Source: Escherichia virus TH57. From it: a stretch of DNA of 64,000 nt. The notes below the pieces were generated by a model. The model saw only the letters and a list, made by a program, of their open reading frames with translations. It did not search any database and was not told where the DNA came from. The DNA is taken from sequence record MT446422.1; one strand, written 5' to 3'. Shown piece by piece: positions 4,827-50,627 of the stretch (its first letter is position 1; each line of letters begins with the position of its first letter). Position numbers and translations under genes: made by a program.

Positions 4827-5120
4827 ATGGGTAAAACTATCCGTCGTAAAGAATTGTCTGTAAAAGATTTTTATTATTCCGGACGTCGTAAAGCACCAGA
4901 CGGTGTAAGTCAGGAACAAGTTGAAGAAAATATTTTCCGTTCAGACAAATGGAAGCGTATGCGTGGCGTTGATTCAGAAGTCAAGAATGAAATGAATCGT
5001 CAACTGCGCAAAGAAGTTCGCCAGTTGAAAAAAGATGTATACGTTGAGGATGATTTTGATTATAATACTTCTCACCGTGTTGCAAAGCGTAAATCAAATG
5101 AATGTTATCGTTACAGTTGA
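4827..5120 (+). CDS. hypothetical basic protein (97 aa)
   Basis: ORF track. GAGG SD 5 nt upstream. Lys/Arg rich. Confidence 0.55.
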   Translation: MGKTIRRKELSVKDFYYSGRRKAPDGVSQEQVEENIFRSDKWKRMRGVDSEVKNEMNRQLRKEVRQLKKDVYVEDDFDYNTSHRVAKRKSNECYRYS

Positions 5121-5529: not shown

Positions 5530-5856
5530 ATGACTGCATCTATCACTAACATCATCGCTAATTTCGCATTTACTAAAGTTAACACTCTGATGAAATCTGG
5601 TTTTGTTACTCCTGAGATTCTGGACCAGTGGGAAGGCGATGTACAGAAACTGATTATTGCAGAAGGTCAGACAATGGGTAAAGCGCGTATTCGTGAAAGC
5701 CTTGTCCAGTATATCCTGAATGAATTTGATGTAGTAGCGTTTGGTTTACCGCTTCTGCGTGAAAACAAAGAAGTTTCTGATAAAGCTATCAAGCGTATGA
5801 AGTCCCAACGCAAGAAGGGGTTTGTTGACCTGAAAATTGTTAAGGGTGCAAAATGA
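5530..5856 (+). CDS. hypothetical protein (108 aa)
   Basis: ORF track. GAGGAATATATC-ATG SD. Preceded by TGgTATAAT (5473-5481). Confidence 0.6.
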   Translation: MTASITNIIANFAFTKVNTLMKSGFVTPEILDQWEGDVQKLIIAEGQTMGKARIRESLVQYILNEFDVVAFGLPLLRENKEVSDKAIKRMKSQRKKGFVDLKIVKGAK

Positions 5857-6116: not shown

Positions 6117-6375
6117 AATAAAACTCTCTAATTACGATAAAAACCTGGAAATGATTACTATGAAAGAAGAACTCCTGAATGATGTCCGCTTGACGGGTTA
6201 TGCAGTTCAATTTAATGATGTTGGTGTCCTCCAGATTGAAGGCGACCACTTTATTATTGAATATGAATTCCATCAGTATTGGTTGTATGCCAAAGATGAA
6301 GTAGGTGGGATTGATTATGTTGACCAGTTTGATAAGCTTGACGATGTTTTAGAAGCTGCCCAGATGGTTTACTGA
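6109..6375 (+). CDS. hypothetical protein (88 aa)
   Basis: ORF track. Overlaps the upstream stop. Confidence 0.5.
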   Translation: MIKIKLSNYDKNLEMITMKEELLNDVRLTGYAVQFNDVGVLQIEGDHFIIEYEFHQYWLYAKDEVGGIDYVDQFDKLDDVLEAAQMVY

Positions 6376-6641
6376 TGCACATCAATCATACAATGATATC
6401 CGTCCAGGACCTGGGAACGTTTTGGGTGGATGAATTTATGAAAATAACATTCTTCCCGCATGCAGAAGGGTATGGCTCTTGGGAGTCTCATATCGGTATG
6501 CTGAATGAAGGACAATACCGCAACGAGCATGACCGTTTGATGGAATTCATTAGCGATGCCGAGGTTATTCCTTATATTGACATCCATGAATTTAAGGCAA
6601 TTATGGAGAAGGTCTTTCAGGCTTACTGTTTACTTCGCTAA
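6375..6641 (+). CDS. hypothetical protein (88 aa)
   Basis: ORF track. TGATG overlap. Confidence 0.5.
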   Translation: MHINHTMISVQDLGTFWVDEFMKITFFPHAEGYGSWESHIGMLNEGQYRNEHDRLMEFISDAEVIPYIDIHEFKAIMEKVFQAYCLLR

Positions 6642-9903: not shown

Positions 9904-11582
9904 AAACGTTTAAGCTTAAGAAAGTTATCTATAAAAATATTATGTCGGTTGGTGCTCAACCGATTACTGTTGAACTGGATAAAGTCCAGAAAACTCTTGT
10001 AACTGGCAAGAATGGCGCAGGGAAATCTACGTTCCTTGAAGCGGTTACCTTTGCTATGTTCGGTAAGCCTTTCCGTGATGTAAAGAAAGGTCAGCTGATT
10101 AACTCGAGCAACAAAAAAGATATGCTCGTTGAATTGTGGATGGAATATGATGGAAAAGAATACTATATCAAACGCGGGCAAAAACCCAATGTTTTTGAAA
10201 TCTCTTGTGGCGGTAAACGTCTTGATGAATCTGCCAGCAGTAAAGACTTCCAAGCGGAATTTGAACAGCTTATCGGAATGTCATACGCAAGCTTCAAACA
10301 AATTGTCGTACTCGGCACAGCTGGATATACCCCTTTTATGGGCCTATCCACTCCTGCCAGAAGAAAGCTTGTCGAAGACCTTTTAGAGGTTTCTGTACTG
10401 GCCGATATGGATAAGCTGAACAAATCTCTTATCCGCGAAGTCAATAGCCAAATCCAGGTGATGGATGTACAGCATGACGGTATCGTTCAACAGATTAAAA
10501 TCTATCAGGACAACGAAGACCGTCAAAGAAAATTGTCAGGCGATAATCTGTTGCGACTGCAAACGATGTATGATGAACTTGCCACAGAAGCACGTGGAAT
10601 CAAGGCAACTATCGAAGAAGCAACGACAAGACTGACCGAGATAATCTTGGGAGAAGACCCTGAGCACGAACTCACAAAGTTAAAGCAGGAATCATTCCTG
10701 ATTAAATCGAAGATTGACGATTATCGAAAGGTTGTTGGTCTGTACGAGAAAGGTGGTTGTTGTCAGACCTGTGCCAGTCAGTTGCATCCAGGAGACCCTA
10801 TTGTCGCCAGGATTGAGTCAAAGATTGAAGAATGTAATGCATCGGCTGATAAGCATAAAGCTCGCCAGAATGCTGTTCAGGAGCAATTTGATGCGTATAC
10901 CAAGGCAAGACAAAACCAGCGTACAATAGCTCAAGACATTCAAACTAAGAAACAAACCTTAGTCCAGACTGTCGAAAAAGCTAAAAAGGTTAAAGCATTA
11001 ATCGAGCAAGCCAAGTCAGAATTCATTGACCATGCAGCAGACATTAAAATGCTTCAAGACCAGCTTGATAAAATAGTCAAACAGAAATCTGACCTTGTGA
11101 TGGAAAAATATCAACGTGGTATCCTAACGGATATGTTGAAAGATTCTGGTATCAAGGGCGCGATTATTAAGAAATATATTCCTATCTTTAATAAGCAGAT
11201 AAACGCTTATCTTAAAGTTATGGAAGCTGATTATAGCTTTACGTTAGATGAAGAGTTCAACGAAACGATTAAATCTCGTGGACGTGAAGACTTTAGCTAT
11301 GCATCATTTAGCCAGGGTGAAAAAGCTCGTATAGATATTGCATTGCTGTTTACATGGCGCGATATTGCTGCGAAAGTATCTGGTGTTAATATTAACACAT
11401 TGATTCTGGATGAAGTTTTTGACTCGGCCACTGATGTAGAGGGTGTTAAAGCAATTGCTACCATCCTGAACAAATTGGAAGACACCAACATTTTTATTAT
11501 CAGTCACCGAGACCATGACCCGGAAGCATACGGGCAACATCTCCAGATGAAAAAAGTTGGTCGATTCACCGTTATGGAATAA
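9900..11582 (+). CDS. 46: Recombination/repair ATPase subunit gp46 (Rad50/SbcC-like)
   Basis: 560 aa, as in T4 gp46. Walker A GKNGAGKST, central coiled coil with a CCQTC zinc hook, signature SFSQGEKARIDIAL, Walker B LILDE. Confidence 0.95.
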   Translation: MKTFKLKKVIYKNIMSVGAQPITVELDKVQKTLVTGKNGAGKSTFLEAVTFAMFGKPFRDVKKGQLINSSNKKDMLVELWMEYDGKEYYIKRGQKPNVFEISCGGKRLDESASSKDFQAEFEQLIGMSYASFKQIVVLGTAGYTPFMGLSTPARRKLVEDLLEVSVLADMDKLNKSLIREVNSQIQVMDVQHDGIVQQIKIYQDNEDRQRKLSGDNLLRLQTMYDELATEARGIKATIEEATTRLTEIILGEDPEHELTKLKQESFLIKSKIDDYRKVVGLYEKGGCCQTCASQLHPGDPIVARIESKIEECNASADKHKARQNAVQEQFDAYTKARQNQRTIAQDIQTKKQTLVQTVEKAKKVKALIEQAKSEFIDHAADIKMLQDQLDKIVKQKSDLVMEKYQRGILTDMLKDSGIKGAIIKKYIPIFNKQINAYLKVMEADYSFTLDEEFNETIKSRGREDFSYASFSQGEKARIDIALLFTWRDIAAKVSGVNINTLILDEVFDSATDVEGVKAIATILNKLEDTNIFIISHRDHDPEAYGQHLQMKKVGRFTVME

Positions 11583-15243: not shown

Positions 15244-17958
15244 ATGCAAGAATTTTATTTAACTATCGAACAAATCGGTGACAATCTGCTTGAACGATAC
15301 ATTGACAAGAACGGTCATGAACGTGTTCGTGAAATCCCTTATGCTCCATGCTTGTTTATGCATGCCCGTGAAGACCAGGCTGCAAAGTATACAGACATCT
15401 ATAATAAAGGTTGTGTGAAAAAAGAATTCGATTCCATGCGTGATGCATCCCAGTGGATGAAGCGAATGAATGACATGGGTCTCGAAGCTATGGGTATGGA
15501 TGACTTTAAACTCGCATACTTGTCCGACCGTTACCCGCACGAAATCAAATACGATTCAAGTAAAATCCGTGTGGCTAACTTCGATATCGAGGTGACATCT
15601 CCTGATGGGTTCCCTGAGCCGTCTGAAGCACGTCACCCTATTGATGCCCTGACGCACTATGATTCGGTAGACGATAAATTCTATGTCTTTGACCTTTTGA
15701 GCTCACCATACGCCACTGTGGAGCAATGGTCTATCGATATTGCTGCTAAGCTGCAAGAAGATGGCGGCGATGAAGTCCCCGAAGAAATCCTGGAAAAAAT
15801 TGTTTATATGGCCTTCGATTCAGAAGAAGAAATGCTCCAGCAGTATTTGGTATTCTGGAACGAGAAAACTCCGGTTATGTTGACTGGTTGGAACATCGAG
15901 AAGTTTGATATTCCATATATCTACAACCGCCTTAAAAATGTGTTTGGTGAAGCTACGGCAAAACGTCTGAGTCCACATCGTCGTACAAAAGTTAAGGTCA
16001 TTAACAACGGATTCGGTGAAGAACAAGAAATCATTCAGATTCTGGGTATCTCTGTTCTGGATTATCTGGACCTGTATAAAAAGTTCAGCTTCACAAACCA
16101 ACCATCTTATTCGTTGGATTATGTTGCAGAATCTGAGCTGGGTGTTGGTAAACTCCCGTATGATGGTCCGATTTCTAAACTGCGTGAATCAAATCACCAA
16201 CGGTATATTTCTTATAACATCATCGACGTTTATCGTGTTGTGCAGATTGACCGTAAGCGACAGTTTATTAACCTAAGCCAGTCAATGGGTTATTATGCAA
16301 AAATGCAGATTCAGTCTGTATTCAGCCCAATCAAAACTTGGGATGCGATTATCTTTAACAGCCTGAAGACGCAAAACAAAGTCATTCCGGAAACCAAATC
16401 GCATGTTCGCCAATCGTTCCCTGGTGCATTTGTTAAGGAACCGATTCCGAACGCATACAAATACGTTATGAGCTGTGACTTAACATCTCTGTATCCGAGC
16501 ATCATCCGACAGATTAACATCAGTCCAGAAACGATTGCCGGGTCATTTGCACCTGCGCCGATGTACGAATACATTGCAGGAACTGCTGACCGTCCATCTG
16601 ATACATTTAGTTGTGCTCCAAACGGTATGATGTATTTTAAAGATGTTGCGGGTATTATTCCGACAGAAGTCACCAAGGTGTTTAATCAGCGTAAAGAACA
16701 CAAAGGCTATATGCTTGCGGCTCAACGTAATGGTGAACTGATTAAGGAAGCTCTGCGTAATCCAGGAACTGGTACAACCGAGCCTGAAGTTGATTATCGT
16801 TATGACTTTGATGACAATATGAAAACAACCTTGCATGGTCTGAATCAAACAGTCCTGAATGGTATGTTGTACAAAGCGCAGATGGAAGAAGTTGCTGGTA
16901 TGACCGCACAGATTAACCGTAAACTGCTTATCAACAGTTGTTATGGTGCTCTGGGTAATATCTGGTTCCGTTACTTTGACCTGCGAAATGCAACCGCGAT
17001 TACATCTTTCGGGCAACTTGCATTGCAGTGGATTGAGCGTAAAGTTAACGAATATTTTGATAGTGTTTGTGGTACAAGTGGTGAAACATATGTATTCTAT
17101 GGCGATACTGACTCCATTTATATCCAGTGCGATAACCTGATTAAAAAGGTTGGTGGCGAATCTAAATTCCGCGATACAAACCACCTGGTTGACTTCATGG
17201 ACAAGTTTGCGAAAGACCGTCTGGAACCAGCAATCGATAAAGCTTTCCGTGAACTAGCTGAATACATGAACAACAAACAGCACCTTATGTTTATGGACCG
17301 TGAAGCGATTGCATGTCCTCCACTTGGTTCTAAAGGTGTTGGTGGATTCTGGACGGCGAAGAAGCGTTATGCTCTGAACGTGTACGATATGGAAGGCACA
17401 CGATATGCTGTTCCGAAACTGAAAATCATGGGTCTGGAAACTCAAAAGTCGAGCACACCAAAAGCATGTCAGAAAGCTCTGAAAGAATGTATCCGCCGTA
17501 TGTTGCAAGAAGGTGAAGAATCTCTGCAGACGTACTTCAAGGAATTCAACAAGGAATTTAATGAGCTTAATTACATGACCATCGCAGGTGTATCATCGGT
17601 TAACAACATCCAGAAATATAATGAGGGTGGTTTCCCTGGATTTAAGTGTCCGGCTCATATCAAAGGCGTGCTTGCTTACATGCGTGCAACCAAAGGGCTG
17701 AAGACTGTTCCACAAATCATGGAAGGGGAAAAGGTGTATGTGCTTCCTCTTAAAGTTGGTAACCCGTTTGGCGAAACCGTGATTGCGTGGCCATCAGGGA
17801 TTGAACTCCCGATTGAAATTCGTGACCAAGTCTTGCAGTGGATGGACTACAACACACTGTTCCAGAAGACTTTTGTTAAGCCATTGACAGGGTTCTCTGA
17901 AGCAGCTAAGGTTGATTACGAGAAAAAAGCATCTCTTTTTGATATGTTTGACTTTTAA
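15244..17958 (+). CDS. 43: DNA polymerase gp43 (family B)
   Basis: 904 aa. Exo I FDIEV, DLTSLYPS, KKRY, YGDTDS. The clamp-binding C-terminus ASLFDMFDF is identical to recalled T4/RB69 sequence. Overall closer to my recollection of RB69 than of T4. Confidence 0.98.
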   Translation: MQEFYLTIEQIGDNLLERYIDKNGHERVREIPYAPCLFMHAREDQAAKYTDIYNKGCVKKEFDSMRDASQWMKRMNDMGLEAMGMDDFKLAYLSDRYPHEIKYDSSKIRVANFDIEVTSPDGFPEPSEARHPIDALTHYDSVDDKFYVFDLLSSPYATVEQWSIDIAAKLQEDGGDEVPEEILEKIVYMAFDSEEEMLQQYLVFWNEKTPVMLTGWNIEKFDIPYIYNRLKNVFGEATAKRLSPHRRTKVKVINNGFGEEQEIIQILGISVLDYLDLYKKFSFTNQPSYSLDYVAESELGVGKLPYDGPISKLRESNHQRYISYNIIDVYRVVQIDRKRQFINLSQSMGYYAKMQIQSVFSPIKTWDAIIFNSLKTQNKVIPETKSHVRQSFPGAFVKEPIPNAYKYVMSCDLTSLYPSIIRQINISPETIAGSFAPAPMYEYIAGTADRPSDTFSCAPNGMMYFKDVAGIIPTEVTKVFNQRKEHKGYMLAAQRNGELIKEALRNPGTGTTEPEVDYRYDFDDNMKTTLHGLNQTVLNGMLYKAQMEEVAGMTAQINRKLLINSCYGALGNIWFRYFDLRNATAITSFGQLALQWIERKVNEYFDSVCGTSGETYVFYGDTDSIYIQCDNLIKKVGGESKFRDTNHLVDFMDKFAKDRLEPAIDKAFRELAEYMNNKQHLMFMDREAIACPPLGSKGVGGFWTAKKRYALNVYDMEGTRYAVPKLKIMGLETQKSSTPKACQKALKECIRRMLQEGEESLQTYFKEFNKEFNELNYMTIAGVSSVNNIQKYNEGGFPGFKCPAHIKGVLAYMRATKGLKTVPQIMEGEKVYVLPLKVGNPFGETVIAWPSGIELPIEIRDQVLQWMDYNTLFQKTFVKPLTGFSEAAKVDYEKKASLFDMFDF

Positions 17959-17960
17959 GT

Positions 17961-17990
17961 GTTTACAACGGCAAAGGACTGCCGTATGAT
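17961..17990 (+). promoter_or_regulatory. early promoter (imm unit)
   Basis: GTTTACA 17961-17967, 17-nt spacer, TATGAT 17985-17990. Leader CCATCAACTGATGA is related to the conserved leader family. Confidence 0.55.
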
Positions 17991-18027
17991 TACTCCATCA
18001 ACTGATGAATAACTTAAGGATATTAAA

Positions 18028-18270
18028 ATGGAAACATTAATTGCGGGTACTGTTGTTCTGGGTGCTGGCTCTTTCTTCCTGGCTGCACTGGCATATTTTC
18101 TGCCGTGGATTATCGCACTACTGCGAGGAACCAAAAGTAATTGCGGAATCTTCTTTGTTAACCTCCTGTTAGGTTGGACAATGGTCGGATGGTTTATTGC
18201 ATTTATCTGGGCACTCGTTGCTGAGCGTAAATCAAACGCACAAGTAATTATCATCAAGGAAACCAAATGA
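18028..18270 (+). CDS. imm: Superinfection immunity protein Imm
   Basis: 80 aa, two TM segments. YFLPWIIALLRG...NLLLGWTMVGWFIAFIWAL fits the Imm_superinfect family signature. Directly downstream of 43, as T4 imm. Confidence 0.75.
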   Translation: METLIAGTVVLGAGSFFLAALAYFLPWIIALLRGTKSNCGIFFVNLLLGWTMVGWFIAFIWALVAERKSNAQVIIIKETK

Positions 18271-18410
18271 AGATAATTACAATTATTATACTGATTGCAT
18301 TTTTTAGTATGTCAATCTATTGGGCAATAATGACTCCGCATATGATTCCAACTTTAATTTTGGGTTGGGTATTTTTGGGGCTCCAAGCTCGCTATGAATG
18401 TTTTAATTGA
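18267..18410 (+). CDS. small membrane peptide (47 aa)
   Basis: Below the track cutoff. ATGA overlap with the imm stop. MKIITIIILIAFFSMSIYWAIMTPHMIPTLILGWVFLGLQARYECFN. Confidence 0.5.
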   Translation: MKIITIIILIAFFSMSIYWAIMTPHMIPTLILGWVFLGLQARYECFN

Positions 18411-18420
18411 GGAAAATACA

Positions 18421-18924
18421 ATGAAAAAGTTAGCTATCGCAGCTGTTATGCTGCTATCTGGTTGTGCTTACCAGGGCGATGTAGTTAATGTCAGTGAAAT
18501 TGGTAAAGCGCGAATTGCTGCAGACCGTCAGGTGCATAATGGTTCCTTTGATTTCAAAGGTGGTACTGGACTTATCTACAAACGCGACAACAATCAATGT
18601 GGAAACAACTGCGCAAAATATGCTCAACAAGAAATTGAGTACAAACGCGAGCAAGCTGCAAAGCATGACGAAATCATTGCCAAGCTGGAAGCAGAAACTA
18701 AGCGACAAAATGACTTGGATACTGTTAACCAGATTTCACAGGTCTGCATGTCATACATCAATATGCAGATAAACATCATGCGCGCGGAAGCTTATCAGGC
18801 AGCGGAGACGGGTTCTCCAAAAGCCAATGAGTATCGCGATATGTATCAGCGGTCTGCTCAAAATCGTCTGAGCTATATTAATAAATGTGTGGCTAAAGAG
18901 AAAGCCCGCCAAGGTATTAACTAA
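18421..18924 (+). CDS. predicted lipoprotein (167 aa)
   Basis: MKKLAIAAVMLLSGC has a signal peptide plus lipobox LSGC. GAGGAAAATACA-ATG. The track start 18394 is an extension. Occupies the slot of T4 42/beta-gt. Confidence 0.65.
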   Translation: MKKLAIAAVMLLSGCAYQGDVVNVSEIGKARIAADRQVHNGSFDFKGGTGLIYKRDNNQCGNNCAKYAQQEIEYKREQAAKHDEIIAKLEAETKRQNDLDTVNQISQVCMSYINMQINIMRAEAYQAAETGSPKANEYRDMYQRSAQNRLSYINKCVAKEKARQGIN

Positions 18925-18931
18925 CATTAAT

Positions 18932-18956
18932 TGCTCTAAAAATACAGTGATATAAT
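18932..18956 (+). promoter_or_regulatory. MotA-dependent middle promoter (uvsX)
   Basis: TGCTCTA 18932-18938, 12-nt spacer, TATAAT 18951-18956. T4 PuvsX is a classical middle promoter. Confidence 0.6.
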
Positions 18957-19009
18957 TATCCTATCTTAAACCTGTGAGAAAAATATAATGGTGCCTATGG
19001 AAAAAATGA

Positions 19010-20188
19010 ATGTCTATTGCAGATTTGAAATCCCGTTTGATTAAAGCTTCTACATCCAAAATGACTGCGACTCTTACTAAGTCCAAGTTTTTTAATGATA
19101 AAGATGTAGTTCGTACAAAAATCCCGATGCTGAACATTGCAATCAGCGGTGCACTAGATGGTGGTATGCAGTCAGGTTTGACTATTTTTGCTGGTCCGTC
19201 AAAACACTTTAAATCCAATATGGGTTTAACGATGGTCTCTGCATATATGAACAAATACCCCGAAGCAATCTGTTTGTTCTATGATTCAGAATTTGGTATC
19301 ACAGAAGCCTATCTGCGTGCAATGAAAGTAGACCCGGAGCGTGTTATCCACACACCAATCCAGTCGGTTGAACAATTGAAAGTTGATATGGTTAACCAGC
19401 TTGAAGCAATTGAGCGTGGTGAAAAAGTCATTATCTTTATTGACTCAATCGGTAACATGGCGTCAAAAAAAGAAACAGAAGATGCGATGAACGAAAAAGT
19501 CGTTGGCGATATGACTCGTGCTAAATCCCTGAAATCTCTGTTCCGTATTGTTACCCCATATTTTAGTATCAAGGATATTCCTTGTGTCGCGGTTAACCAT
19601 ACAATCGAGACGATTGAGATGTATAGCAAAACCGTTATGACCGGTGGTACAGGTGTTATGTATTCTGCGGACACCGTATTCATTATCGGCAAACGCCAGA
19701 TTAAAGAAACTGGTAAAGAACTTGAAGGTTTCCAATTTGTTCTGAATGCCGAAAAATCTCGTATGGTCAAAGAGAAAAGTAAATTCTTCATTGATGTAAA
19801 ATTCGATGGTGGTATTGACCCGTATTCTGGCCTGCTTGATATGGCAATGGAAATCGGATTTGTAGTGAAACCGAAAGTTGGTTGGTATAACCGTGAATAT
19901 CTTGATGTTGAGACCGGTGAAATGGTCCGCGAAGAAAAATCATGGCGTGCAAAAGATACTAACTGTACTGAATTCTGGGGCCCGTTGTTTAAGCACGAAC
20001 CTTTCCGTGACGCAATCAAACGCCATTACCAACTGGGTGCAATCGATAGCAATGCTGTTGTTGATGCCGAAGTTGATGCGCTTATTGCCTCCAAGGTTGA
20101 AAAATACTCTGCCCCTGAAGGTAAGGCAAAACCATCTGCGGCAGATATCGAAAACGATTTAGATATGATGGAAGACCTTGATGAATGA
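19010..20188 (+). CDS. uvsX: Recombinase UvsX (RecA-like)
   Basis: 392 aa. DLKSRLIKASTSK, Walker A GPSKHFKS, KSWRAKDTNCTEFWGPLFKH and an acidic C-terminus match recalled T4 UvsX. Confidence 0.97.
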   Translation: MSIADLKSRLIKASTSKMTATLTKSKFFNDKDVVRTKIPMLNIAISGALDGGMQSGLTIFAGPSKHFKSNMGLTMVSAYMNKYPEAICLFYDSEFGITEAYLRAMKVDPERVIHTPIQSVEQLKVDMVNQLEAIERGEKVIIFIDSIGNMASKKETEDAMNEKVVGDMTRAKSLKSLFRIVTPYFSIKDIPCVAVNHTIETIEMYSKTVMTGGTGVMYSADTVFIIGKRQIKETGKELEGFQFVLNAEKSRMVKEKSKFFIDVKFDGGIDPYSGLLDMAMEIGFVVKPKVGWYNREYLDVETGEMVREEKSWRAKDTNCTEFWGPLFKHEPFRDAIKRHYQLGAIDSNAVVDAEVDALIASKVEKYSAPEGKAKPSAADIENDLDMMEDLDE

Positions 20189-26066: not shown

Positions 26067-26585
26067 ATGGCTCATTTTAATGAATGTTCACAACTGATTG
26101 CTGGTGTTGACAAAGCTGAAGAAGCTTATGACAATGCAATTATCGAAGGCACTGACCCGCTGCAGATTATGCTTGATATGCAGAAATCATTGCAGGTCCG
26201 TTTGGCTACTGAAAAACCAGAATACAACTCACATCCAGACGAATTGGCTACCGCCGGCGATGTTGTTGCATGGCTTCGTAACCAGAAAGATTATGTTGAT
26301 GATGAATTCCGTGAACTTCTAACTTCTCTCGGTGGTATGTCTAATGGCGAGAAAGCTGCATCTAGTGTATGGAAGCCTTGGAAAGCCCAACATGCTGAAT
26401 TCCGTAATCGTCGTATTGATGAGTTGTCTCCTGAAGACCAGCTCGAAATTAAATTTGAGATGATTGACATCCTGCACTTTGTTCTGAACATGTTCCATGG
26501 TCTTGGCCTGTCGGCAGAAGAAATCTTTAAATTGTATTACCTGAAAAATGCTGAAAACTTTGCTCGTCAAGACCGAGGTTATTAA
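26067..26585 (+). CDS. 56: dCTP/dCDP pyrophosphatase gp56 (MazG-like)
   Basis: MAHFNECSQLIAGVDKA..., ELATAGDVVAWLRNQKDYVDDEFRELLTSLG and IFKLYYLKNAENFARQDRGY match recalled T4 gp56. The track start 26049 is an extension. Confidence 0.93.
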   Translation: MAHFNECSQLIAGVDKAEEAYDNAIIEGTDPLQIMLDMQKSLQVRLATEKPEYNSHPDELATAGDVVAWLRNQKDYVDDEFRELLTSLGGMSNGEKAASSVWKPWKAQHAEFRNRRIDELSPEDQLEIKFEMIDILHFVLNMFHGLGLSAEEIFKLYYLKNAENFARQDRGY

Positions 26586-42545: not shown

Positions 42546-42815
42546 ATGATTAAGCATTTCAATGTGTCAGACCGTGACATCAAAGTTTCAAATCTCCGGG
42601 GTCACCATTACGCAGGAATAGTTTACTGTGGCAAGCTCATCAAGCATGAAGGTGATGTTCACTATGGCTGGTTGGAATGTGATGAAGTAGTTGTTGGGGA
42701 ATTCCCTGACCCGGATTCTGATACATTTGATGCTAATGACCGTTTGTATTATGGCGAGCTTCATATCCGGGGAATCGTCGGTATCGATGAGGTAAAAGAT
42801 GATTCAGAAGAGTAA
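42546..42815 (+). CDS. hypothetical protein (89 aa)
   Basis: ORF track. Confidence 0.5.
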   Translation: MIKHFNVSDRDIKVSNLRGHHYAGIVYCGKLIKHEGDVHYGWLECDEVVVGEFPDPDSDTFDANDRLYYGELHIRGIVGIDEVKDDSEE

Positions 42816-43392
42816 AACATGGGAGCATCTGAAAAAGATGCCCTCCTTTCTTTATACAAAGGAAGACTTAACACCTGAATCCCTACAAAAGATTGTAGAC
42901 ACGGCCAGGTATTCATTGCGTAAAGACCCAGGTCAAGACCGTGAGCAAGTCATGCAAAGATGTATGGTGGCTACAATGGCAGAACAAGCTATTGCTAAAT
43001 GGACCTCCGGCTTTTTATGCGGCGGTGATGAAGATTACGATAATCCTTATTCCTTTGCATTTGATGTAGTTTCGAAGGAAGGGGTAAGAATCGAAGTCAA
43101 GACCCACCAGTCTGGTTCCAAATGGATATCCGTGCATACTGGTAGTCAGGGCGATTATCCACATGGTTACGGGATTAATCTTGGTCCTTTTATGCAACAC
43201 AAGCTTGCTGACCTTATGATTATGTTTAATGTAAAAGAGACTATCAAAGGTTATAGATTTAAACCAAAATTCCTTGCTGGGCCTGGGGCTTTTGTTCCTG
43301 AGTCCGGTCTTGTGCAGAAGTCACAAGGGGATGGCTGGTACCTCCGTTCTTGTTCAGAAGAAAAATTCCCCTATCACCGGTTTACAAGCTGA
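42799..43392 (+). CDS. denB: PD-(D/E)xK-like nuclease candidate; positional equivalent of denB (endonuclease IV)
   Basis: 197 aa (T4 DenB 185 aa) between rIIB and ndd. FAFDVVSKEGVRIEVKT looks like a D...ExK nuclease motif. Not confirmed by alignment. Confidence 0.4.
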   Translation: MIQKSKTWEHLKKMPSFLYTKEDLTPESLQKIVDTARYSLRKDPGQDREQVMQRCMVATMAEQAIAKWTSGFLCGGDEDYDNPYSFAFDVVSKEGVRIEVKTHQSGSKWISVHTGSQGDYPHGYGINLGPFMQHKLADLMIMFNVKETIKGYRFKPKFLAGPGAFVPESGLVQKSQGDGWYLRSCSEEKFPYHRFTS

Positions 43393-45373: not shown

Positions 45374-45823
45374 ATGACTACTTACATGACCCGTCGTGAC
45401 GTACTGAATGCTGGCGCTACCACTGTTGCTCACATCCATAATGGCAATTATGTTGTAGGGCGTCCAACTAAAGAAGCTATCACCCAACCAGGTTTTTATT
45501 TCGTGGTTAAAGGTGAAGGCGAATCACGTATTGTTGCTGCACGTTTTTACGTTGGTAACCAACGTTCACAACAAGGGTTTGACACTGTATTAAGTCACAT
45601 CCGCAAACAGCGTTCACAACTGTCGCGCACAATGGCGAACAATGGTGTTATCTATGAAGTCCTGTTTGTTCCAGTTTCTAAAATGAAACCTTTGACAACT
45701 GGTTATGGTAAAGGTCAAATTGCGATGGCGTTCACACGCTCACATAGTTCTGATTGTCAGACCCTTTCAGAAATGAATCGCATGCTTGCTGATAACTTTA
45801 AATTCATTTTGCAGAGCTATTAA
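45374..45823 (+). CDS. ndd: Nucleoid disruption protein Ndd
   Basis: 149 aa. [31 protein letters not shown]...[20 protein letters not shown]...[16 protein letters not shown] matches recalled T4 Ndd. Confidence 0.88.
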
Positions 45824-50347: not shown

Positions 50348-50627
50348 ACTCCATACATATCAAGCAACTGAATTGGTTATTCTTATTGATGAGCTTTTTA
50401 AAATCCATGCTTCAGTTCCAGCCGAAATCTATGCAGAAATTCTTTGTGATTTGGATAGCAGCTTTGGCTATATTCAACCGGAATATACAATTAGATTCTC
50501 TAGTGAACGACCTGGCTACGCTAAAGTGGTTTTTGGTCCTGGATTAGATGAAGAACAAGTATTAAGAGAAATTCAAGAAGAAATTGATGATTTTGGTTTA
50601 GAAGATTACATCGAGGAATCACTATGA
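50337..50627 (+). CDS. arn: acidic protein (96 aa); positional candidate for Arn (anti-McrBC DNA mimic)
   Basis: Strongly acidic (EEQVLREIQEEIDDFGLEDYIEESL). Size near T4 Arn (92 aa) and located between motA and asiA. Sequence identity not verified. Confidence 0.4.
   Translation: MITKLHTYQATELVILIDELFKIHASVPAEIYAEILCDLDSSFGYIQPEYTIRFSSERPGYAKVVFGPGLDEEQVLREIQEEIDDFGLEDYIEESL

Follow-up and report, generated by a model that had tools for sequence, protein, structure and literature searches.

A conserved imm neighborhood beside a probably empty cytosine-modification slot in a Gaprivervirus coliphage

We analyzed a 64,000-nucleotide stretch of DNA from Escherichia virus TH57 (sequence record MT446422.1; hereafter, the window), concentrating on positions 17,959 to 18,924, which lie between gene 43, encoding DNA polymerase, and uvsX, encoding a recombinase. 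Three small open reading frames (ORFs) are found here. They encode the superinfection immunity protein Imm, a hydrophobic micro-protein of 47 amino acids (aa), and a predicted lipoprotein related to Imm.1 of phage T4, and they are followed by a short junction in the place where other T-even-type phages carry genes for cytosine modification. The features of the region and its flanks are as follows:

15244..17958, plus strand: gene 43, DNA polymerase (left flank); 904-aa ORF, annotated in the relatives EAWsc9 and VR7
17962..17990, plus strand: promoter-like site of sigma-70/T4-early type upstream of imm; TTTACA, 17 nt, TATGAT, with 10 of 12 consensus matches
18028..18270, plus strand: imm, superinfection immunity inner-membrane protein, 80 aa; PF14373, phrog_1039
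18267..18410, plus strand: 47-aa hydrophobic micro-protein ("gp42.1" in VR7; RB69 ORF054c family); phrog_3610
18421..18924, plus strand: lipoprotein of the Imm.1 family, 167 aa, predicted lipobox LLSG/C; phrog_1754
18925..19009, plus strand: 85-bp junction, putative empty cassette slot; read from sequence
19010..20188, plus strand: uvsX, recombinase (right flank); 392-aa ORF, annotated in relatives

Bases 17000-20000 of the window are 99.8% identical to Escherichia virus TH54 and 94-97% identical to SP18, VR7, VR20, EAWsc9, and others, all of them Tevenvirinae of the genus Gaprivervirus. This similarity places the source phage in Gaprivervirus, with the T4-like coliphages VR7, SP18, and TH54. 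The counterpart of the window in TH54 spans ~36.1-101.0 kb and is reverse-complemented. The window amounts to ~38% of the genome, and all genome-wide screens reported here were run on two complete relatives, TH54 and VR7. The flanking genes are those of a T4-like phage: gp43 is 60% identical to its T4 counterpart and 78% to that of Dhakavirus, and UvsX is 79% identical to T4 UvsX.

Matches to PHROG families, annotation in relatives, and the number of phage records recovered by tblastn (1248 for Imm, 480 for the micro-protein, and 120 for the lipoprotein) identify the three ORFs as real, conserved genes rather than chance reading frames. The ATG of the micro-protein gene overlaps the TGA of imm in an ATGA at 18267-18270, and the lipoprotein gene is preceded by GAGGA 7 nt 5' of its ATG. 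The early-type site 5' of imm is a predicted promoter, put forward as a consensus match and not as functional evidence. A first-pass annotation of the window, made from the sequence alone, had delimited the three ORFs exactly, including the ATGA overlap and the LLSGC lipobox, and its view of all three products as envelope proteins is upheld by our analysis. It had also recognized Imm by the signature LLGWTxxGW, which is present as LLGWTMVGW. The protein is a genuine superinfection immunity factor; matches to PF14373 (E = 1e-17; 64.2 bits against a cut-off of 27.9) and phrog_1039 (E = 1.8e-30) agree with this assignment.

Imm of the window is 52% identical to T4 Imm over its full length and 67.5% identical to the Dhakavirus protein. 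The target of T4 Imm is the helical-bundle domain of gp29, the tape-measure protein; by binding it, Imm blocks genome translocation. The activity of Imm requires R33, in the helical core, and W50, in a loop that contacts the tape-measure protein, and plasmid-borne Imm alone suffices for phage exclusion (2026 preprint, bioRxiv 10.64898/2026.03.06.709160). Both residues can be read directly from the window sequence, R33 in LLRGTKS and W50 in LLGWTMVGW. Because both are kept, the same mechanism is the best inference for the window protein, which very probably blocks entry of superinfecting genomes as in T4: situated in the inner membrane, it would bind the tape-measure protein of the superinfecting phage, whose genome would then fail to cross this membrane. 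The gp29 of VR7 is 70.5% identical to Dhakavirus gp29 and only 34% identical to T4 gp29.

The 47-aa micro-protein matches phrog_3610 over its full length (E = 1.6e-26). It contains two hydrophobic stretches and the conserved motif P-x-MIPT-x-I-x-GW ... Y-E/N-C-F/I-N, which is found in its T4 and JS98 copies by alignment and in the DNA of the PhAPEC2 copy by eye. The T4 copy lies within a 153-bp "gap" between imm and gene 42 and is a 49-aa ORF, unannotated in RefSeq, with the sequence MKSKIIAALLLILMIIISIYYSVTVPLMIPTIILGWSLLLLQVKYECIN. It is 57% identical to the window peptide over 30 aa (E = 1e-9) and shows the same ATGA overlap with the imm stop codon; its position is NC_000866 ~26230-26376 on the minus strand (excerpt L003, ~6231-6377). 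Most Tequatrovirus records among the matches listed have nothing annotated under the peptide match. In Dhakavirus phage JS98, the homolog (orf44) also overlaps the imm stop by ATGA. The JS98 gene is annotated from 5883 (36 aa), but homology reaches the ATG at 5856 that overlaps the imm stop (excerpt L005, 5856-5993), and the deposited start is therefore probably too far downstream. Mosigvirus presents a different arrangement: in PhAPEC2, ATGA joins the peptide gene to a gene for arabinose-5-phosphate isomerase and no lipoprotein gene adjoins, and in HY126, imm lies ~10 kb from the peptide gene. Since the peptide gene sits apart from imm in Mosigvirus, the peptide is not an obligate partner of Imm. 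We would describe it as a widely conserved hydrophobic micro-protein that is always translationally coupled, through ATGA, to whichever gene precedes it.

Homology searching of the lipoprotein, a step proposed by the first-pass annotation, placed it in the Imm.1 family. It matches phrog_1754 at E = 1.4e-46, and T4 Imm.1, a 125-aa lipoprotein with the lipobox LAG/C, matches the same profile at E = 6.1e-43. Across the family alignment, T4 Imm.1 included, the L-x-G-C lipobox, C15, C60, C109, and C156 are invariant; the window protein has four cysteines beyond that of the lipobox. It is 52% identical to JS98 orf43, and imm adjoins the lipoprotein gene in T4, JS98, VR7, and the window. On these sequence criteria, we identify the window lipoprotein as the ortholog of T4 Imm.1. 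A deep homology search with the lipoprotein among 1.84 billion representatives returned only 25 clusters, and seven of the eight cluster sequences inspected are small lipoproteins of 138-192 aa. A 1550-aa repeat protein was rejected as a relative; it matched only the GGTGLxY..C motif, which we judged a motif-level coincidence.

Alanine at position +2 after the lipid-modified cysteine suggests that the lipoprotein is probably anchored in the outer membrane and faces the periplasm. Within a predicted helical region spanning residues 63-163, its AlphaFold2 model (mean predicted local distance difference test score, 68) places a helical hairpin with confidence at ~100-163, while the N-terminal part, which carries a conserved GGTGLxY...NQCGNNC motif, is poorly defined. 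From sequence features and this model, the protein would be a disulfide-containing, helical periplasmic protein, probably outer-membrane anchored. Its genomic context suggests that it is plausibly another early factor for envelope remodeling, protection, or exclusion. Lipoproteins such as T5 Llp had been named as the precedent for an exclusion role. Our search for Llp/Cor homology of the lipoprotein found only phrog_1119 (Cor), at E = 0.024 over residues 1-17, that is, the signal peptide, and the precedent thus has no sequence homology behind it beyond that peptide. T5 Llp and Cor of phi80/N15 resemble the window protein as small phage-encoded lipoproteins that alter the envelope, a functional analogy only; they are exclusion lipoproteins of a receptor-blocking type, and to our knowledge the T-even receptors are not FhuA. 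Spackle of T4 (gp61.3), a periplasmic inhibitor of the gp5 lysozyme, is an early periplasmic exclusion factor and is reported to act alongside Imm in T4 (PMC7677548). It shows only that exclusion can have a periplasmic layer, since it is unrelated to the lipoprotein or the rest of the trio and is encoded at another locus; a homolog of its gene, sp, is annotated in VR7 and EAWsc9.

The order of these genes differs among genera. In the T4 RefSeq record it is 43, imm.1, imm, 42, b-gt, segA, uvsX, with the unannotated 49-aa ORF between imm and 42; the T4 order assumed in the first-pass annotation (43, imm, 42, beta-gt, uvsX) was correct in sequence but incomplete, omitting imm.1, the 49-aa ORF, and segA. 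T4 therefore resembles the window in carrying all three families after gene 43 (Imm 52% identical, peptide 57% over 30 aa, Imm.1 in the same PHROG). It differs in that its lipoprotein gene lies upstream of imm and encodes a shorter protein (125 aa), and in that 42, beta-gt, and segA precede uvsX, whereas in the window uvsX comes directly after the trio. The order in JS98 is 43, imm (orf45), peptide (orf44), lipoprotein (orf43), five cassette genes (orf42-orf38), a gene for a transmembrane (TM) peptide, and uvsX. The five cassette genes encode a nucleoside triphosphate-transferase/kinase fusion, an isomerase, a kinase-like protein, a homolog of thymidylate synthase (TS), and orf38. The JS98 trio has the same order as that of the window, with identities of 67%, 53%, and 52%, and the uvsX promoter and leader are conserved, but ~4.4 kb, comprising the five modification genes and the small TM-peptide gene, separates the lipoprotein gene from uvsX, compared with 85 bp in the window. 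Within this junction, a putative middle-promoter-like element of uvsX can be read (TGCTCTA at 18932-18938, 12 nt, and TATAAT at 18951-18956, a MotA-box/-10 pair), and the ~70-bp uvsX leader is conserved between the window and JS98, where it follows the five-gene cassette. In PhAPEC2 the order is 43, arabinose-5-phosphate isomerase, peptide, cassette. The five JS98 cassette genes are of the RB69 type. Such genes, with a gp48-type synthase, have been assigned to the synthesis of 5-hydroxy-deoxycytidine monophosphate (5-hydroxy-dCMP) and to arabinosylation, and many Straboviridae, among them Dhakavirus, have them mapped to the interval from the polymerase gene to rIIA (NAR 2026, PMC13326640).

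No remnant of gene 42 was found by tblastn in the 85-bp junction. Because T4 and JS98 carry the trio together with modification genes, the trio has replaced nothing. The first-pass annotation had the three genes occupying the slot of gene 42 and beta-glucosyltransferase; this does not hold, as all three stand beside gene 42 in T4 and precede the cassette in Dhakavirus. Judging from the gene order, the cassette is cleanly absent, and the trio adjoins an empty slot rather than filling it. In VR7, the lipoprotein gene and uvsX are set further apart by a 156-bp insertion with TTAATT on both sides (excerpt L002, ~4935-5095), whose product is a 42-aa TM peptide, MIGMLLISLWLLSAFGIGFMYWWDKRQTRKIVERAINRGFNR. 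The end of a homologous ORF can be seen in JS98 just 5' of the uvsX promoter (excerpt L005, ~10790-10860); the insertion is absent from the window, TH54, and EAWsc9.

A T4 phage with cytosine in its DNA survives only if 56, denB, and alc have each been inactivated. Genes of this kind are nonetheless retained in the window, where the following features were mapped:

26067..26582, plus strand: gp56-type deoxycytidine triphosphatase (dCTPase)/dUTPase; PF08761, phrog_173
42799..43389, plus strand: DenB-like endonuclease IV; phrog_1360, E = 2.4e-80
45374..45820, plus strand: Ndd nucleoid disruption protein; phrog_1102, E = 5e-60

Altogether, gp56, DenB, Ndd, Alc, DenA, the dCMP deaminase Cd, and the deoxynucleoside monophosphate kinase gp1 are all present. 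The gp56 protein is 91% identical to that of Dhakavirus and 69% to that of T4, and PF06591 (Ndd) is matched by one of 99 ORFs in a genome-wide Pfam screen. The gene set listed in the first-pass annotation stands for gp56, the denB-like nuclease, and ndd and is weak for its arn-like member: nothing in the window resembles T4 Arn beyond 36 aa at its C terminus (36% identity, E = 0.006), matched at 50508-50615 in the asiA-motA interval. The VR7 annotation lists arn.1 to arn.4 only, and full-length arn (anti-McrBC) appears to be missing.

The resulting paradox is already published, and the trio itself is ordinary and annotated in relatives. In 2021, Gaprivervirus was reported to be without known enzymes for non-canonical bases yet to encode homologs of DenB, Alc, DenA, and dCTPase, and an unknown protein was suggested (PMC8056088); the same absence in the genus was stated in a 2025 paper (PMC12115623). 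By restriction analysis, Gordeeva et al. (2019) concluded that VR7 DNA "has modified cytosines," which are unglycosylated (PMC6326788, supplementary Fig. S4), and they found VR7 to be fully sensitive to BREX, unlike the glycosylated VR5 (PMC6326788). In the literature we searched, no paper resolves the chemistry of the VR7 modification.

Our searches extend the absence of known modification genes beyond the window. T4 gp42, alpha-gt, and beta-gt and JS98 orf38-42 had no tblastn match at E < 0.01 in the window, all of VR7, or the rest of TH54. Pairwise methods proved too weak for the TS fold: phmmer and a small hidden Markov model built from gp42, orf39, and td barely detected td from gp42 (E = 2.3), and for this reason we adopted a Pfam screen. 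Among 99 ORFs of 140-420 aa in the TH54-type genome, exactly one, td, matched PF00303. This test is valid because the positive controls, T4 gp42 (3e-16) and JS98 orf39 (4e-13), both match the family. The td product of VR7 was ruled out as a dCMP methylase; it retains Asn177 and Leu143, which specify dUMP and methyl transfer, and is thus an ordinary dUMP enzyme. A reverse screen of T4 genes of at least 110 aa found 42, beta-gt, alpha-gt, dam, homing endonucleases, ORFs resembling internal head proteins, and a few unidentified genes to be missing from Gaprivervirus, and the Dhakavirus genes missing are the five cassette genes and a few others. Genes of the 5-hydroxycytosine/arabinosylation cassette (the flavin-dependent TS-homolog 5hodCMP synthase, NDP-arabinose genes, and arabinosyltransferase genes) were found in none of the Gaprivervirus genomes searched, and the alpha-gt slot, the 47-55 interval, contains only homologs of a-gt.2 to a-gt.5. 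The absence of gene 42, beta-gt, and alpha-gt from the window, as first noted, is thereby confirmed. The accompanying expectation was that these genes must lie elsewhere or differ in kind. Its first part is refuted by tblastn, the Pfam screen, and the reverse screen for TH54 and VR7, the closest complete genomes; its second part is the question that PMC8056088 and PMC12115623 had posed before.</replace><year></year><why>e and h, half of the note's alternative and its outcome lost</why></edit>
<edit><find>The yield consisted only of small proteins of at most 174 aa, several with the N-terminal signature of T-even internal head proteins and others without a family match; among those matching no family are VR7 ORF147c, 149c, and 239c.</find><replace>The yield consisted only of small proteins of at most 174 aa, several with the N-terminal signature of T-even internal head proteins; most of the yield either resembles such proteins or matches no family. 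Of the VR7-specific ORFs examined, ORF147c, 149c, 239c, and others match no family.

A search for a replacement enzyme in these genomes found no candidate. In a forward screen, we collected ORFs of at least 70 aa that are common to TH54 and VR7 and absent from Dhakavirus and T4 (tblastn, E < 1e-3). The yield consisted only of small proteins of at most 174 aa, several with the N-terminal signature of T-even internal head proteins and others without a family match; among those matching no family are VR7 ORF147c, 149c, and 239c. VR7ORF006c and VR7ORF135c were rejected as modification enzymes, both being HNH homing endonucleases. ORF147c had been noted by its depositors as similar to a "cytidine/deoxycytidylate deaminase," a suggestion we rejected, as the protein has no Pfam match and no H/C-x-E or PCxxC motif. 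The corresponding region of TH54 (L010, 28599-30004) encodes two genus-specific, paralogous small proteins with a common C-terminal domain (...AARRA-IDxxV....K.-VQSYASNFRK).

One further protein was considered as a replacement. VR7ORF134c (excerpt L004, 16938-17624) encodes 228 aa with an HxD...H...R pattern, which suggests a 2-oxoglutarate-Fe(II) oxygenase. It has no Pfam match; for one Aeromonas phage, UniRef lists the protein under the phytanoyl-CoA dioxygenase family. Its homologs number 1287 at E <= 0.001, in T4-like phages of many genera; the best 120 of these are 67-90% identical and come from T4-like phages of Escherichia, Citrobacter, Serratia, Erwinia, and Aeromonas, together with some Klebsiella records. 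Because the family is so widespread across T4-like genera, its presence does not track the loss of gene 42, and we rejected this PhyH-like protein as the replacement enzyme. Two nucleotide-metabolism genes have unusual identities. The kinase gp1 (VR7, L004 27191-27868) shares ~47% identity with its counterparts in T4 and Dhakavirus alike, whereas other core genes are 70-80% identical to Dhakavirus. By contrast, cd (VR7, L006 37800-38381) is closer to T4 (86% identical) than to Dhakavirus (66%), opposite to the trend across the genome. These patterns may reflect recombination or substrate-related constraint, and the divergence of gp1 is a weak hint only.

Site composition and gene content yielded some observations of their own. 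GATC is the only strongly avoided 4-6-mer: it has 0 sites in the window, against 228 +/- 13 expected, and 0 in a composite TH54-type genome of 170 kb. The counts are 5 in VR7 (expected ~579, z = -24), 32 in Dhakavirus CLBP2, and 190 in T4. A homolog of T4 Dam is lacking from Gaprivervirus and Dhakavirus. Restriction-site avoidance as a proxy for unmodified DNA was set aside, as there is no general signal beyond that of T4 and only GATC stands out. Gene content also varies within the genus: EAWsc9 (L001, 4097-6381) has gene 49 followed closely by nrdD and nrdG, for the anaerobic ribonucleotide reductase and the activase of this enzyme, and the VR7 annotation has neither in the gene 49 region (L008, 39532-40005).

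We consider it likely that this region is the conserved early imm neighborhood of T-even-type phages, with the modification slot empty in Gaprivervirus. Several points weigh against that reading. The absences reported are absences of recognizable homologs only, and the forward screen would not detect a shared gene whose homolog had taken on a new role. Genome-wide absence is read from relatives, the window ends being 97-98% identical, not identical, to TH54. DUF5481 (PF17578) does not match the window lipoprotein at E <= 1 and matches T4 Imm.1 at 5e-72; because the model, which covers only the T4-type branch, misses the window protein, its Imm.1 orthology rests on the PHROG profile, the cysteine pattern, and synteny. 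Profile searches of Protein Data Bank (PDB) sequences, NCBIfam, and Pfam with the lipoprotein gave no meaningful match, and a Foldseek search of its model against the PDB returned generic helical hairpins only (best E = 1.5). If the slot only appeared empty because gene 42 and the sugar-transfer genes had moved elsewhere in the genome, the size of the window relative to the genome would give that idea some a priori plausibility, but we found no positive evidence for it. In VR7 and TH54, neither tblastn nor the Pfam screen of the whole genome found such genes, with positive controls that worked, and two published studies reach the same conclusion for the genus (PMC8056088; PMC12115623), which makes relocation extremely improbable. 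The first-pass annotation had proposed instead that the trio forms a superinfection-exclusion module, and a three-part module that took the place of gene 42 and beta-gt would fit several features of the locus: the genes lie side by side in one orientation and probably share a transcript from a single early promoter; imm and the peptide gene are coupled by ATGA in T4, JS98, and the window alike; genes for Imm and an Imm.1-type lipoprotein are neighbors in Tequatrovirus, Dhakavirus, and Gaprivervirus; and all three products are envelope proteins. Set against these are the coexistence of the trio with modification genes in T4 and JS98, the coupling of the Mosigvirus peptide to an isomerase gene with imm ~10 kb away, the exclusion of T4 by plasmid-borne Imm alone, and the lack of Llp/Cor homology past the signal peptide. 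Such a module is, in our estimation, a poor prospect.

Two answers can be given to how Gaprivervirus reconciles its empty slot with its retained nucleases. One is that the genus modifies cytosine with an enzyme unrelated to TS, which could have a new fold, be small, or derive from a shared gene put to new use. This would explain the tolerance of dCTPase, DenB, and Alc; it agrees with the restriction analysis reporting modified, non-glycosylated cytosines in VR7 (PMC6326788), with the intact state of DenB, Alc, DenA, and Ndd, and with the 91% identity of gp56 to the Dhakavirus enzyme, which points to strong constraint, and the divergence of gp1 would be compatible with a third substrate. No enzyme has emerged to fill the role, the genus-specific ORFs of at most 174 aa being mostly internal-head-protein-like or without family, or else homing endonucleases; ORF134c is widespread without a link to gene 42 absence, and the literature searched does not say what the modification is chemically. 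We put this answer just short of an even chance. The other is that the DNA contains ordinary cytosine and that gp56, DenB, and Alc have shifted in specificity or are controlled so as to spare phage DNA. Consistent with this, no known modification gene of any kind is present, not even dam; VR7 is fully BREX-sensitive, like the unmodified VpaE1; and GATC has been purged, as in phages whose DNA encounters GATC-directed enzymes of the host. The published restriction analysis nevertheless concludes that cytosines are modified, gp56 is highly conserved, and palindrome avoidance is no stronger than in T4. It is also established that cytosine DNA of T4 is viable only with 56, denB, and alc all inactivated. 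On balance, ordinary cytosine seems unlikely.

These comparisons present the interval from the imm neighborhood to uvsX as a swappable slot for cytosine-modification cassettes in the Tevenvirinae, holding 42 and beta-gt in T4, genes for 5-hydroxycytosine and arabinose in Dhakavirus and Mosigvirus, and apparently nothing in Gaprivervirus. Members of this genus lack every known DNA-modification gene and yet keep the enzymes that make unmodified cytosine lethal in T4, a paradox with consequences for restriction evasion, transduction risk, and the selection of Gaprivervirus phages for therapy. Imm.1 and the 42.1-type micro-protein are uncharacterized partners of an Imm that is now understood mechanistically, and they are cheap to test. 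We suggest tentatively, and at somewhat below even confidence, that Gaprivervirus uses a cytosine replacement or modification pathway independent of TS or else a dCTPase, DenB, and Alc set re-tuned to work without such modification. If true, either would be a new T-even solution to the problem of distinguishing self from non-self DNA, and the empty cassette slot beside the imm cluster would be its genomic signature.

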